DNA of 64,000 bases from Planctomycetota bacterium (GTDB taxonomy: Bacteria > Planctomycetota > MHYJ01 > WSZJ01), in NCBI GenBank assembly GCA_038060895.1, contig JBBTCT010000015.1:1-64000 (forward strand), given 5' to 3'. Position numbers and translations under genes: made by a program. Positions 15,467 through 50,461 of the stretch are shown one piece after another; position 1 is the stretch's first letter; every line of letters begins with the position of its first letter. The notes beneath the pieces are model-generated. The model made no database searches and was not told where the DNA came from. It saw only the letters and a list, made by a program, of their open reading frames with translations.

Positions 15467-16810
15467 ATGGCCGAACGGATCAGGATTCGCGCCCGGTTTG
15501 CCGACCAGTGCCCCCTTTTCAAACAGGGTGAGGGCATGACTCTGGAGCTCCCGGGCGTCGTCGCATCGCGCTGTCACAACGTCTGCGCCGCCTCGCTGCA
15601 CGCGTTTCTGACGCTTCACGAGATGCGCAAAGGCTCCGTGGACGGCAAGCAGTACACCTGTTCGTTCGTCGGTTGCCGGGCGACGATGGAAGTCGCAGTC
15701 GGGACGGAATTTCCGGAAGTGAAACCTGCTGCCGCGCCTGCGGCGGCGCCGAAGGCTCCCGGAGCTGCGCCTGCCTCGGCCGCGAATCCGGCGACGGCCG
15801 TGCTTTCCAAGATGAAGGGCTCCAATCCGCTGGCGGCGTTCCTGTCGTCGGCGAGCCCATCCCAGGACGACGACTTCGGCGGCACGGGAATGACGCCGAT
15901 GCCGATCAACGATCCCTCCGATGCGCCCGCGCCGGCACCCGCTCCTGTGTCGAAAGCCCCGGCGACGGCGGTTGCGGCGCAGGACTCGAAAGGGAAGCTG
16001 CTGGCGATTGCGACCAAGCTGAAGACGGCGCCGATTTTCAGTGGCCTGCCCGGCGAAGAGCTGGAGCGGATCGCGAATTCGGTCAAGCTCGTGTCGTATC
16101 CCGCGGGCACGACGCTGCTCAAGTCGGGCGATCCGGGTGAGAAGTACTTCCTGCTCGCGGGCGGCCGGGTCGATGTGATCCAGATCGACAAAGATGGCAC
16201 CGAGAAAGTGCTGAGCTCCCTCGGTTCAGGCCAGGGCGTCGGCGAGATGTCGCTCCTGACGGGCGAAAAGTGCTCCGCGACGGTCAAGACGGTCGATTCC
16301 GTCCAGGCGCTCGTCATCGCCCGCACCGACTTCGAAGCCATGCTCGAGGCCGCGCCCCAGTTGAACCGGCACTTCAACAAGATCCTCGCGGACCGCCTTC
16401 GCACGACGAACCAGAAACTGACCGACGTGATCCAGAACGGCGTGCTCGGGAAATTGCAGATGTTCTCGCTCGCCGAGCTGACCCAGGCGCTCGCCGTCAG
16501 CGGCCGGACGGGCTACCTGCATCTCCAGCACCGGGCGCAGCGCGGCTACCTGACCGTGCGCGACGGGTACGTGTTCCACGCCAAACTCCCCGGGAAGGAC
16601 AAGCCCGAGGACGCGTTCCTCGAAATGATGACGTGGCGCGAAGGTGAGTTCCGCTTCGAGCAGGGCGACATCTCCACCCTCGGCCTGCGCCCGATCGACA
16701 CGACGAGCCTCCTCGTCGAGGGAGCGAGGCGGATCGACGAAAAAGCGCGCAGCGTCGAAGCGCCGAAGCCGGCCGAAGCGAAGCCTGCAGAGCCCGCGAA
16801 GCCGACGTAG
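15467..16810 (+). CDS. Cys-rich N-domain + cyclic-nucleotide-binding domain + DUF4388(PatA-N)-like domain
   Basis: PIFSGLP..., GEMSLLTG..SATV; GKLQMFSLAELTQAL...RTGYL...WREGEFRF. Confidence 0.82.
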   Translation: MAERIRIRARFADQCPLFKQGEGMTLELPGVVASRCHNVCAASLHAFLTLHEMRKGSVDGKQYTCSFVGCRATMEVAVGTEFPEVKPAAAPAAAPKAPGAAPASAANPATAVLSKMKGSNPLAAFLSSASPSQDDDFGGTGMTPMPINDPSDAPAPAPAPVSKAPATAVAAQDSKGKLLAIATKLKTAPIFSGLPGEELERIANSVKLVSYPAGTTLLKSGDPGEKYFLLAGGRVDVIQIDKDGTEKVLSSLGSGQGVGEMSLLTGEKCSATVKTVDSVQALVIARTDFEAMLEAAPQLNRHFNKILADRLRTTNQKLTDVIQNGVLGKLQMFSLAELTQALAVSGRTGYLHLQHRAQRGYLTVRDGYVFHAKLPGKDKPEDAFLEMMTWREGEFRFEQGDISTLGLRPIDTTSLLVEGARRIDEKARSVEAPKPAEAKPAEPAKPT

Positions 16811-48194: not shown

Positions 48195-48791
48195 CTACCC
48201 CAGCAGGGCCTCCAGTTCCCGTTTTGCGTCCTCCATGGTCGGGTCGAGTCGGAGCGCTTCCTGAAAATCCTTTACCGCCCCGGCGAGGTCCCCCTGATAG
48301 GAGCGGACGAGCCCGCAGTGGAACCGGGGACGCGCGTAGAGGGGAGACAGCAGGATCGCTTCGTCGAAAGCCTGAAGCGCGCCGATGAAATCGCGGTATC
48401 TCAGGAGCTGGAGCCCGCGATTGTTCCAGGCTGCGGAGTTGTCGCCGGACGCGTCGAGGGCGGCAAGGATGTCTCCGAGGGCGCCTTCCTCGTCGCCGCT
48501 CAACTCGCGCGCGACGCCGCGGTTGTTCCAGGCCGGTGAGTAGGTGGGAAGGAGATCGATCGCCTTCGTAAACTCCGCGATGCTGGCGGCCCATTCACCC
48601 CGGCGGAGGCTCTCGACGCCTGCGTTGAAATGACGTCCCGCCGGCCCGATGTTCTTCGACTCGGCGTCGTTGGCGTCCAGGGACGATTCCTCCCGCTCCA
48701 GGGGAGTCTCGGTGAAGCGCTTCAGGATGGGCGGGGTCTTTGTCGAGAGTTCCTGCCCTTCGGGCACAACGACGATCGGTTCCGTTTCCAT
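48195..48791 (-). CDS. TPR-repeat protein
   Basis: AWNNRG repeats; GAGGGAG SD before ATG 48791. Confidence 0.85.
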
Positions 48792-49032
48792 GTCGGTCTC
48801 CCTCAGTTTCATGGAAAGGCGGTAAGCAATCGAGGTGCCCCGGACGCGCGGGACTTCCCGGTTTCGACACTAGGGGAAAGGCCGGGGTAACGCGACCGGC
48901 AGCCGGGGGAAGAGCCGCAAGCGCCCCAATCCGGGGCTCCGCTTCGAGATTCCACGCCTCCCCACGGGAAATTCTTACGGCGGCTCGCGGGTCAATTTGA
49001 CGCGGGGCAGCTTTCGGGAGGATCATTTCGAC

Positions 49033-49067
49033 CCGGCACGGCCCCGGTTTCCCGGAAGCCATGCCGG
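49033..49067 (-). promoter_or_regulatory. Long GAAA-tetraloop hairpin just downstream of the SEC-C gene
   Basis: Minus strand CCGGCATGGCTTCCGG-GAAA-CCGGGGCCGTGCCGG. Confidence 0.6.
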
Positions 49068-49078
49068 CCACGAAGTCG

Positions 49079-49327
49079 CTACTCCCTGAAAAAAGTGGTT
49101 CCGCAGCTCGCCATCGAAGCGGCCGGAGGGCATGCAGCACTTCTTGAAAACGCCTCCCGGACCCGCAGGGGCAGAGGTCGTTCCTGCCCAGTTTCTCGAA
49201 GAGCTCCTTGTCGCCGTGCACGACGCGGCGGCCCTTCTTCACGTGGGTCTCGGAAGGGAAGCCTCGGCGGCGCTTACTGGTCGGCTTGCGGAAAGCAGCG
49301 TTCGTCGTCGTTGGGGATGAGTGCCAT
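49079..49327 (-). CDS. Small SEC-C zinc-motif protein requiring +1 frameshifts at TTT-C sites
   Basis: AGAGGAGG SD + ATG 49327; [14 protein letters not shown] and KKCC lie in different frames joined at TTT-C. Confidence 0.75.
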
Positions 49328-49423
49328 ACGGACCTCCTCTCAAAAGGAAAGGCGCGTCAAGCGCGGCGTCTTGATCGTGATTCCCGTCGAAAGGTTCAGG
49401 GATGGCGGCGGGGCAGCCCGGAA

Positions 49424-49720
49424 TCAGAGAAGCATGAGTTCGACGCCGTCGTCCGCTTCGCCGCCGCCGACTCCGTGCGCGCGGATGATCTCCACGATCG
49501 TCTCGAACCTGGGGAGCGTCCGCCGCGAACGGCCCGAGTGCGTCCATCGCAGGACGAATCCGCCCTTGGGCGTGCCGAAACCCCCGCGCAGGATGTCGTT
49601 GAACGCGTCGAGGTTGCGGCCCCACTTTGCGCCGGGGATGAGCACCCGGGAGATTTCGTCGTAGAACTCCTCAAGAGTTCCGAAGCGAGTGCCGTCGAAT
49701 TCCAGAACGGGTTTTGCCAT
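49424..49720 (-). CDS. Barstar-family (barnase inhibitor) protein
   Basis: FDGTRFGTLEEFY...WGRNLDAFNDIL. Confidence 0.88.
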   Translation of the reverse strand: MAKPVLEFDGTRFGTLEEFYDEISRVLIPGAKWGRNLDAFNDILRGGFGTPKGGFVLRWTHSGRSRRTLPRFETIVEIIRAHGVGGGEADDGVELMLL

Positions 49721-49800
49721 GGGGTGAGGAGAAGATATCACGGCCTCGAGATCAACGTCGTTTTGGGTCCCGTCGCCACGCAAGGTGTCCGCAAGCGGTC

Positions 49801-49831
49801 TGTATCCAAATGTGTATATAATTCTGTATAC
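49801..49831 (+). promoter_or_regulatory. TA promoter/operator: TATAAT overlapped by three TGTAT repeats
   Basis: TGTAT at 49801, 49813, 49825; TATAAT at 49817-49822. Confidence 0.6.
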
Positions 49832-49859
49832 TTGCCAGTGACACCTGAAGGAGGAGTTC

Positions 49860-50105
49860 ATGAGCTTGACCGTCCGCATCCATTCGACAACTCACATCGC
49901 GCTCAAGGGTCTCTCGAAGGCAACCGGCAAGTCCATGCAGGATGTCCTGTCGCTGGCCATTGATGAATTTCGTCGGAAGTGGATGCTGGCGGCGACGGCG
50001 GAAGCCTTGAGTGAGTTGCGAAAGGACCCCAAGGCCTGGAATCAACTGATGGCGGAGCAGAAAGTGTGGGAGGGAACTCTCGCCGACGGACTTGAGCGGG
50101 AATGA
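49860..50105 (+). CDS. Antitoxin, ribbon-helix-helix-like
   Basis: TVRI...LKGLS...SMQDVL; C-terminal WEGTLADGLE; ATGA overlap with the toxin. Confidence 0.78.
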   Translation: MSLTVRIHSTTHIALKGLSKATGKSMQDVLSLAIDEFRRKWMLAATAEALSELRKDPKAWNQLMAEQKVWEGTLADGLERE

Positions 50106-50461
50106 AGACCTCCATTCCGCGTCGAGGTGAAGTCTGGCGACTCGATTTCGATCCTGCTCAAGGCCACGAGCAGGCGGGCTTGCGACCCGCCCTCATCGTG
50201 TCGGATGATGACTTCAACCGTTTGCCCTGGCGGCTTTGCGTGGTTCTCCCTCTGTCAACGACACTCCGCTTGTTTTCGCTTCATGTAACGATCCATCCCC
50301 CCGAGGGCGGGTGTCGACAGCCGAGCGTCATCATGTGCCAGCACCTGCGCTCGGTCAGTCTCGACAGGTTGGACAAAAGGCTCGGGACGGTTACGGACGC
50401 GACTCTCGCGGAAGTGGACTTCAGGCTGAAGTCGATCCTGGCGCTGGCGGGGCGGGCCTGA
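50102..50461 (+). CDS. mazF: PemK/MazF-family endoribonuclease toxin
   Basis: RRGEVW...GHEQAGLRPALIVS..FN. Confidence 0.92.
   Translation: MKTSIPRRGEVWRLDFDPAQGHEQAGLRPALIVSDDDFNRLPWRLCVVLPLSTTLRLFSLHVTIHPPEGGCRQPSVIMCQHLRSVSLDRLDKRLGTVTDATLAEVDFRLKSILALAGRA

Follow-up and report, generated by a model that had tools for sequence, protein, structure and literature searches.

To our knowledge, programmed +1 frameshifting is described for few bacterial cellular genes, with prfB as the classic case, and each of these genes has a single shift site. According to a review (PMC5009743), ribosomes of bacteria shift to +1 with particular ease at UUU_Ynn sites, also where no stop codon follows; the shift cassette of influenza A is UCC_UUU_CGU, and a minority of species have UUU_U as the shift site of prfB. 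Several frameshifts or bypasses per gene are reported for nuclear genes of Euplotes and for mitochondrial genes of Perkinsus and yeast (PMC5009743, PMC2952869, PMC9550989). Here we analyze a small gene with an SEC-C zinc motif on the minus strand of a 64,000-nucleotide stretch from a Planctomycetota bacterium (contig JBBTCT010000015.1, assembly GCA_038060895.1; referred to as the window). The explanation that fits it best, and that we regard as very likely, is an intact gene of about 81 residues that would be read through three programmed +1 ribosomal frameshifts.

The gene is composed of the following features, where S denotes the frame of the leader start codon.

49333–49340, minus strand: Shine-Dalgarno sequence AGAGGAGG, 5 nt ahead of the leader ATG
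49292–49327, minus strand: leader in start frame S, 12 codons from ATG 49327–49325, the last two being Cys-Phe (TGC TTT)
49291–49294, minus strand: shift site 1, UUU_C (TGC_TTT_CCG), skipped C at 49291
49147–49290, minus strand: core in frame S+1, 48 codons, basic, containing VHGDKEL and ending in CPCGSGRRF
49153–49158, minus strand: Shine-Dalgarno-like GGGAGG, 3 nt ahead of the UUU of site 2, a possible stimulator
49146–49149, minus strand: shift site 2, UUU_C (CGT_TTT_CAA), within the zinc motif at the RRF/KKCC boundary, skipped C at 49146
49089–49145, minus strand: tail in frame S+2, 19 codons with the pattern KKCC..SGRFDG..R..FF, ending in HFF
49088–49091, minus strand: shift site 3, UUU_C closing a T6 run (TTT_TTT_CAG), skipped C at 49088
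49079–49087, minus strand: Arg-Glu and TAG stop, again in the start frame
49033–49067, minus strand: stable hairpin directly 3' of the stop, possibly a terminator or a 3' end structure

The original prediction had placed the start at ATG 49327 behind AGAGGAGG and had given frame S 17 codons; the sequence bears this out, with TAA 49276–49274 ending the frame if no shift takes place at site 1. Translation of the four abutting stretches with table 11 gives the leader, the core, the tail and the RE-stop. When each TTTC is read as a single step, one product of 81 residues results, with exactly three non-standard steps (F12, F60 and F79). The predicted three TTT-C jumps, ending in the start frame, are reproduced by this conceptual reading. 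F23, F43 and F70 are encoded by TTC, and F12, F60, F78 and F79 by TTT. The earlier statement that TTT occurs only at junctions and that the three internal Phe codons are TTC holds with a small addition: the codon of F78 makes up the first three bases of the T6 run at junction 3, and all four TTT codons lie at junctions. The T runs measure T3 at site 1, T4 at site 2 and T6 at site 3. Jump 2 does complete the zinc motif as had been claimed. The full Pfam SEC-C profile (PF02810, positions 1–19 of 19) is matched only when site 2 is shifted, with 39.6 bits against a cut-off of 20.4, whereas the unshifted frame matches positions 1–13 or 1–14 with 26.6–28.1 bits.

In formal terms, every break in the gene amounts to one base inserted into a T run, as a decaying pseudogene or a homopolymer sequencing error might show. 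Independent assemblies were compared. Part of the stretch is contained in 12 runs, of which four were compared, with two possible source runs excluded. A contig from another study (X3 record 7, 603 bases) covers 48765–49367 with 0 differences and 0 gaps, and a contig from a third study (X7 record 10, 235 bases) covers 49026–49260, likewise with 0 differences and 0 gaps. The T runs are thereby confirmed in contigs of two other studies; the comparison was one of contigs, in which minor variants of T-run length would not show. The single RNA contig (run X11) covers only 49452–49577, inside the neighboring barstar-like gene.

The genome from which the window derives (G000) comprises 5.4 Mb in 47 contigs, with a completeness of 86.5% and a G+C content of 65.8%; the window is its contig C15. 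A DNA match at E ≤ 1e-40 was found in four of eight genomes of the genus, G000 included (completeness 81–94%), and a further genome (G007) gave weak partial matches only. The copies in G003 and G004 (80–82% DNA identity) show no insertion or deletion across all three sites and keep all three jumps. In the G005 copy the 5' part is missing, and sites 2 and 3 are kept. The sequence ACTTTTTTCAGRGAGTAG at site 3 is present in all four genus copies. The leaders of G003 and G004 are conserved as protein, with a change from CGC to AGG, both Arg codons. For the core, the ratio of synonymous to non-synonymous codon differences in the proposed frame is 18:4 for G003 and 15:6 for G004, versus 4:17 and 0:21 (G003) and 5:18 and 1:20 (G004) in the other two frames. 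The contrast is weak for the short tail (4:5 versus 3:6 and 2:8 in the other frames). In the last three codons the lone difference within the genus is AGG to AGA (G003), which is synonymous in the start frame alone. A single SEC-C gene with three serial +1 shifts at UUU-C, as originally predicted, is supported by the kept jumps and by this synonymous bias.

The G005 copy (L004/L012, C5 ~15473–15644) lacks a start codon and everything upstream of VHGDKEL, and it reads CPCSSG for CPCGSG. Judged by its sequence, it is probably a remnant, in which both downstream frame jumps are still kept. This truncated copy, together with database entries in which the motif is scrambled (P0016 and P0021), agrees with decay or sequencing error. 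Against this stand the identity of the contigs from two other studies over the window sites, the presence of the same breaks in three species that are about 80% identical, where change in every proposed frame is strongly biased toward synonymous differences, and the fact that identical positions are broken in isolate genomes and metagenome-assembled genomes of many phyla while nearly all loci have no breaks elsewhere. We consider a pseudogene or a homopolymer error largely refuted and extremely improbable.

To compare the junctions, one genome per species was scanned; 579 stretches were confirmed and the best 80 of them studied. Together with the window and the three genus copies this gave 84 loci, 82 of them anchored by a regular expression and two (L073 and L113) by eye. 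The junction states in the 82 loci are as follows.

Leader/core (window site 1): +1 in 77, in frame in 0, unresolved in 5; +1 motifs TTT_CGA 45, TTT_TGA 17, TTT_CAA 5, TTT_CCG 3, others 7
RRF/KKCC (window site 2): +1 in 19, in frame in 63, unresolved in 0; +1 motifs TTT_CAA 17, TTT_TAA 1, TCT_CAA 1
GRF/DG: +1 in 52, in frame in 29, unresolved in 1; +1 motifs TTT_TGA 40, TTT_CGA 6, CTT_TGA 3, and 3 Acidobacteria slightly earlier
YF/R-[ED]-stop (window site 3): +1 in 67, in frame in 10, unresolved in 5; +1 motifs TTT_TAG 37, TTT_CAG 20, TTT_CCG 6, others 4

In the three Acidobacteria we read the shift at a CTT_Y directly after CC. The commonest pattern of breaks listed here, leader plus GRF/DG plus end, was found in 33 loci; the pattern of the window (leader, RRF/KKCC and end) occurs in 14, and two loci combine the leader with both middle sites and an end in frame. 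Three shifts are needed in 49 of the 82 loci, two in 13 and one in a single locus, and nine have at least one unresolved site. Not one locus was resolved as fully in frame (0/82). The frame jumps, nearly always at TTT_Y, thus lie at equivalent Phe positions in the homologs, a comparison that the original prediction had asked for. Site 3, which it had ranked as the most speculative, is well supported: this junction is +1 in 67 of the 82 loci and in frame in 10, with varying Arg codons.

Loci with a junction in frame have the same residues there, in other codons (TTC AAG at RRF/KKCC; TAC or TTC GAY at GRF/DG; TTC followed by CGN or AGR, GAN and a stop at the end), which points to selection and conservation at the protein level. 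The tail motif DGxxRxxYF is conserved throughout the family in whichever frame follows the shift, and the F-R-[ED]-stop ending is found throughout the family as well. Phe codons that precede C inside the core are TTC in 50 cases and TTT in five. Nearly all loci are free of breaks outside the stereotyped positions. At the level of sequence, these comparisons show how the frames are laid out, that this layout is conserved, and that each frame is under selection for its protein.

A leader reading frame was identified in 73 of the 82 loci, 65 of them with an ATG start, with a median length of 12 codons. A Shine-Dalgarno core of at least 4 nt lies within 16 nt upstream of 70 of these 73 leaders. 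The leaders commonly contain an acidic patch followed by Phe. In principle, the leader could be an independent upstream open reading frame (ORF), with the core started separately, either at the internal ATG of MSKRR or at GTG 49242, and with truncated products as the functional ones. In many loci the leader UGA indeed lies 5 nt ahead of a core-opening ATG (TGA GCC G ATG AGC), MSKRR is present in many Planctomycetes, gene callers routinely give 55-residue products ending in GRF, and GTG 49242 of the window is in frame with the core. However, the window, G003 and G004 have Thr in place of this Met, and the core frame upstream of GTG 49242 contains no ATG, GTG or TTG. Yet the 16 codons ahead of this GTG are protein-conserved (four synonymous and one non-synonymous difference to G003, counted by eye). 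Because this stretch without a start codon is conserved as protein, frame S+1 must be entered from the leader. Moreover, 45 of the 77 shifted leader junctions have CGA and no stop, and neither the tail DGxxRxxYF nor the R-[ED] end has a start of its own, both being contiguous with the core in other lineages. Such partial decoding is very unlikely in our view.

The length of the T runs bears on a further explanation, namely a correction in the RNA, where the polymerase would slip on T runs, or in the DNA, where part of the population would vary in phase. Site 3 of the window has T6, and T7 or longer runs are confined to the leader junction, in 16 of the 82 loci; minor length variants would stay invisible when contigs are compared. 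In ten loci the leader with its Shine-Dalgarno sequence and ATG lies two frames back on a T7C, so that two +1 slips or one −1 slip would be needed (L048, L049, L054, L057, L058, L074, L078, L081, L089 and L117); in eight of them every site is resolved, and the shifts add up to four bases. Transcriptional slippage is known for runs of about 7–9 or more. Most sites are shorter, with T3–T4 (TTT_C, TTT_TGA) and some CTT_T. In addition, this would require three or four sites to be "off" together in almost all assemblies across many phyla, and the independent assemblies agree exactly over the T runs. A correction of this kind is therefore highly improbable.

Based on the junctions we propose the following mechanism for intact translation of the gene through ribosomal frameshifting. 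Peptidyl-tRNA-Phe (anticodon GAA) on a P-site UUU would re-pair one base downstream on UUC, and decoding would then proceed in the new frame. After three such shifts the ribosome would be back in the start frame, in which Arg, Glu and the stop are read. Across the family, the same four or five Phe/Leu positions bear YUU_Y sites in varied combinations. Cognate re-pairing is possible at all three window sites (UUU_C) and at nearly all family junctions (YUU_Y). With YUU_Y at the common junctions, perfect re-pairing in the +1 frame is open to the P-site tRNA, which is tRNA-Phe or, rarely, tRNA-Leu. A U as the fourth base makes the following zero-frame codon a stop, with the residue that comes next deciding between UGA, UAA and UAG, and a C makes it CGA, CAA, CAG or CCG. 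A stop is found in this position in 17 of 77 shifts at site 1, 43 of 52 at GRF/DG and 40 of 67 at site 3. The Shine-Dalgarno-like hexamer 3 nt upstream of site 2 is present in all four genus copies as GGGAGG, AGGAGG, GGAAGG or GGGAAG. In prfB, the spacing between the Shine-Dalgarno sequence and the shift site is also 3 nt. Slippage itself, its efficiency, any stimulators and any regulatory purpose are inferences.

Several observations weigh against this explanation. The re-pairing is disallowed at site 2 of G004 (TCT_C) and at two other loci (L113, CTG_TGA; L099, TTC_TAG). In the window, the zero-frame codons that follow the sites are all sense codons (CCG, CAA and CAG). Their use in G000 per 1000 codons is 29 for CCG and 26 for CAG, which are common, and 4.6 for CAA, which is rare. 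A pause is thus not evident at sites 1 and 3, and three serial shifts of low efficiency would give very little product. TTT-C is not depleted in long ORFs of G000, where 54% of TTT codons precede C (in a crude stop-to-stop set). The enrichment of Shine-Dalgarno-like sequences across the family is weak, with p = 0.03 (uncorrected) at site 2 and p = 0.25 at GRF/DG. No Rfam element was found in the gene; a single sub-threshold match to isrL lies outside it. Finally, the gene looks dispensable, with a copy in four of the eight genus genomes, a 5' truncation in G005 and different neighbors among the members of the genus.

Instead of slippage by ordinary tRNA-Phe, a dedicated decoder of UUUY might be at work, either a tRNA with an enlarged anticodon loop or a tRNA-Phe with G37 from a tRNA array. 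Base 37 of tRNA-Phe affects frame keeping. G37 in place of A37 is found in a tRNA-Phe of the 34-gene array of G000 and in the array beside L109, and several genomes carry the gene within a tRNA array. On the other hand, a search of the 85 tRNAs of G000, a genome 86.5% complete, revealed none with a four-base RAAA anticodon. Most loci have no array within 3 kb (four or more tRNAs in 6 of 83), and CUU_U sites call for tRNA-Leu rather than tRNA-Phe. We regard a dedicated decoder as highly unlikely. The array tRNA-Phe(GAA) of G000 (C22:196609–196681) has the loop ctGAAga, the one beside the L109 copy is located at L109:1380–1454, and the stand-alone tRNA-Phe of G000 (C31:165543–165614) has the usual A37 and A38.

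The hairpin behind the stop codon (49067–49033) has a minimum free energy of −38.3 kcal/mol, calculated for an 81-nt stretch, with z = −3.0. Its counterpart in G003 is followed by TTTT. A simple scan of the window found no canonical terminator, and a promoter scan found no promoter on the minus strand. Under the frameshifting mechanism, ribosomes that fail to shift at site 2 or 3 would run into or past this hairpin.

By its sequence, the product begins with an acidic leader and a basic N-terminal part; a zinc motif of the SecA type (CxC...CC) and a short F-R-E tail follow. The approximately 45 residues N-terminal to the motif and the tail gave no match in Pfam, NCBIfam, PADLOC or solved structures. 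A PDB sequence search, NCBIfam, PADLOC and a protein atlas matched the zinc motif alone, and the solved relatives of this motif are YchJ-C (9l6b) and SecA (1sx0, 1tm6 and 1ozb). An AlphaFold prediction with 120 database homologs (first row P0002) had a mean pLDDT of 63.9, which is low confidence. In PADLOC the SEC-C region alone matches the C-terminal ends of the E2 and PDC-S12 models. A known anti-phage defense protein was rejected as an identity, since nothing beyond the shared zinc motif matches these models.

The spliced product matched 2207 of 2216 candidate proteins (44–142 residues) at E ≤ 1e-3. Among the 120 matches listed, identity to it is 63–88%, and the groups represented include Planctomycetota, Acidobacteriota, Verrucomicrobiota, Melainabacteria, Desulfobacterota, Gammaproteobacteria and others. 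A profile of these 120 homologs found 1004 cluster representatives (50% identity) at E ≤ 1e-10. The core segment is the most conserved part of the family. F45, K46, C48 and C49 are at least 90% conserved in the 120 aligned proteins, and most homologs hence read straight across the position of window site 2. Called homologs often end in ...GRF (55 residues) or ...YYF (64 residues), as judged from 20 that were inspected. Among 301 genomes of the phylum of the window, 42 match at E ≤ 1e-10; we counted 21 as true members (E ≤ 1e-14), the others being bare zinc-motif hits. A phage collection contained no family member (four YecA motif matches).

Two plasmid records of Candidatus Manganitrophus carry an unannotated copy (CP114562.1:90084–90221 and CP114554.1:65063–65200), with matches that stop at residue 47, near the RRF/KKCC junction. 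Where the family has CPCGSGxxF, P0016 reads CPCGQDTGF and P0021 reads CPAALADAF. Read from the protein sequence, this looks like two compensating frame changes within the zinc motif in either case.

In the window, the gene lies between a tetratricopeptide repeat (TPR) gene and a barstar-like gene, with a MazEF pair nearby.

49424–49879, minus strand: barstar-like gene (RNase inhibitor family)
49860–50105 and 50102–50461, plus strand: MazE/MazF-type toxin-antitoxin pair

The barstar-like gene and the MazE/MazF pair are directly upstream, inserted amid housekeeping genes (PFK, exonuclease VII and RNase Y). None of six window neighbors was found near the copies in G003, G004 and G005, and Pfam searches with ten ORFs neighboring the genus copies were uninformative.

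We also surveyed the neighbors of 83 loci (±3 kb, 1759 ORFs) by all-against-all clustering and Pfam searches with representatives. Three neighbor families recur: Hen1 in six loci, Ro60/TROVE in seven and RlaP in six, together in 16 of the 83 loci. Hen1, an RNA-repair methyltransferase, is encoded on the same strand directly downstream in all six of its loci. Pfam searches with the 139 nearest ORFs of at least 120 residues added RNA ligase (2), RtcB (1) and AAA_33 (3), among 108 families overall. ARAGORN predicted 71 tRNA genes and one tmRNA in 14 of the 83 loci (445 kb). The tmRNA (L084:14–367) lies about 2.6 kb upstream of a family copy from Planctomycetaceae, which has RlaP downstream. Arrays of 5–24 tRNAs within 3 kb were found in six of the 83 loci. 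In four Planctomycetes the gene adjoins tRNA-Arg(GCG) and lies within, or on the border of, an array that comprises up to 24 genes in 3 kb; tRNA-Cys(GCA) follows the gene in three of these four.

L075:46–3331: tRNA-array locus, Stieleria magnilauensis chromosome
L113:597–3319: tRNA-array locus
L081:488–1448: tRNA-array locus
L093:2761–2949: tRNA-array locus

Hen1 is present in 9 of the 21 genomes of the phylum sample that have the gene versus 26 of 280 without it (odds ratio 7.3, Fisher p = 1.5e-4; uncorrected for kinship, with five of the nine genomes from one family). The window gene itself is not beside RNA-repair genes or an array. In G000, an array of 34 tRNA genes in 4.2 kb (C22:195134–199316) lies about 9 kb from Hen1 (C22:185837–186559), RtcB is encoded on contig C31, and no match to TROVE was found. 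The array contains a tRNA-like gene to which ARAGORN assigned a four-base anticodon (tatg).

Long tRNA arrays (L-arrays) are described (PMC8421152) as spread by horizontal transfer and induced under impaired translation, with neighborhoods rich in RNA-processing and translation genes and with late induction of hen1-pnkP and rtcB. The rsr-rtcBA operon is turned on by broken tRNAs, according to PMC7790460. The RNA-repair neighbors in about a fifth of the loci and the placement in tRNA arrays suggest a role of the family in translation stress. The original prediction had conjectured a fidelity sensor, and the link to RNA repair and tRNA arrays points in a related direction. Tentatively, and with less than even confidence, we place the protein in the circle of translation stress and tRNA damage, where serial shifts could tie its synthesis steeply to ribosome waiting time. 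A more specific proposal, which we hold to be rather doubtful, casts the family as both sensor and effector of translation-apparatus damage, gated by frameshifting. Here three to four obligatory UUU_Y slips would make the output depend steeply, in a roughly cubic way, on starvation of the A site, on slow termination or on tRNA-Phe status. The gene would travel with horizontally spread tRNA arrays and with Hen1-Pnkp, Ro60/RtcB and RlaP, and the small, basic zinc protein might act on ribosomes or broken RNA, with the G37 tRNA-Phe of the arrays maybe serving as a dedicated shifter.

No description of a frameshifted SEC-C gene was found in the literature searched, which left out supplements and most subscription journals. 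Term look-ups gave no mention of it in the available parts of PMC5009743, PMC3711429, bioRxiv 2025.10.02.679949, PMC8421152, PMC12776372 and PMC7790460, and the papers on tRNA arrays and RNA repair do not mention this gene in the parts consulted. In this small family of cellular genes, which spans many phyla, three or four serial shifts are the rule. Its sites flip between contiguous reading and one extra base in the course of evolution and thus provide a natural comparative series for the shiftiness of UUU_Y. Annotation pipelines mis-call the gene, giving 55-residue fragments or nothing. Several harmless cultured carriers exist in which shifting could be measured, among them Stieleria magnilauensis TBK1r, Massilia pinisoli JCM 31316 and Acidobacteriaceae bacterium KBS 96, and the link to tRNA arrays and RNA repair offers a concrete hypothesis for a cellular readout of damage to the tRNA pool.

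The family shares features with several known systems. With the tRNA arrays, rsr-rtcBA and Pnkp-Hen1 it has in common its neighbors Hen1, Ro60, RlaP, RtcB, RNA ligase and tRNA arrays. The motif CPCGSGxxFKKCC relates it to the C-terminal domain of SecA, to YchJ and to YecA (SEC-C, PF02810), from which the window product differs as a small stand-alone protein whose remainder is unmatched.

Regarding recoding, the likeness to prfB (CUU_UGA_C) lies in a P-site tRNA that re-pairs in the +1 frame with a stop codon in the A site. The family has UUU_UGA (17 loci at site 1 and 40 at GRF/DG) and even CUU_UGA (three loci), and the genus of the window has its Shine-Dalgarno-like hexamer 3 nt ahead of site 2. 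However, prfB has one site and is autoregulated by its own product, whereas the family has three to four sites per gene, its product is no release factor, and the next codon is often a sense codon (at all three sites in the window). In G000, prfB itself was matched in a single open frame. The UUU_Ynn sites and influenza A PA-X share the same tetranucleotide and the same move of tRNA-Phe from UUU to UUY. The commonest site-1 context other than FF, TCC_TTT_CGA at 10 of 63 tallied junctions, is nearly the influenza A cassette. In those cases, however, a single site leads to a minor product or an error, while the only conserved product of the family needs every shift. Euplotes and the mitochondria of Perkinsus and yeast resemble the family by several stereotyped frame changes in one gene. 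There, this is a trait of a whole genetic system; here, it concerns one small gene in bacteria that otherwise decode normally, a case of recoding within programmed +1 frameshifting that is gene-specific, multi-site and spread across phyla.

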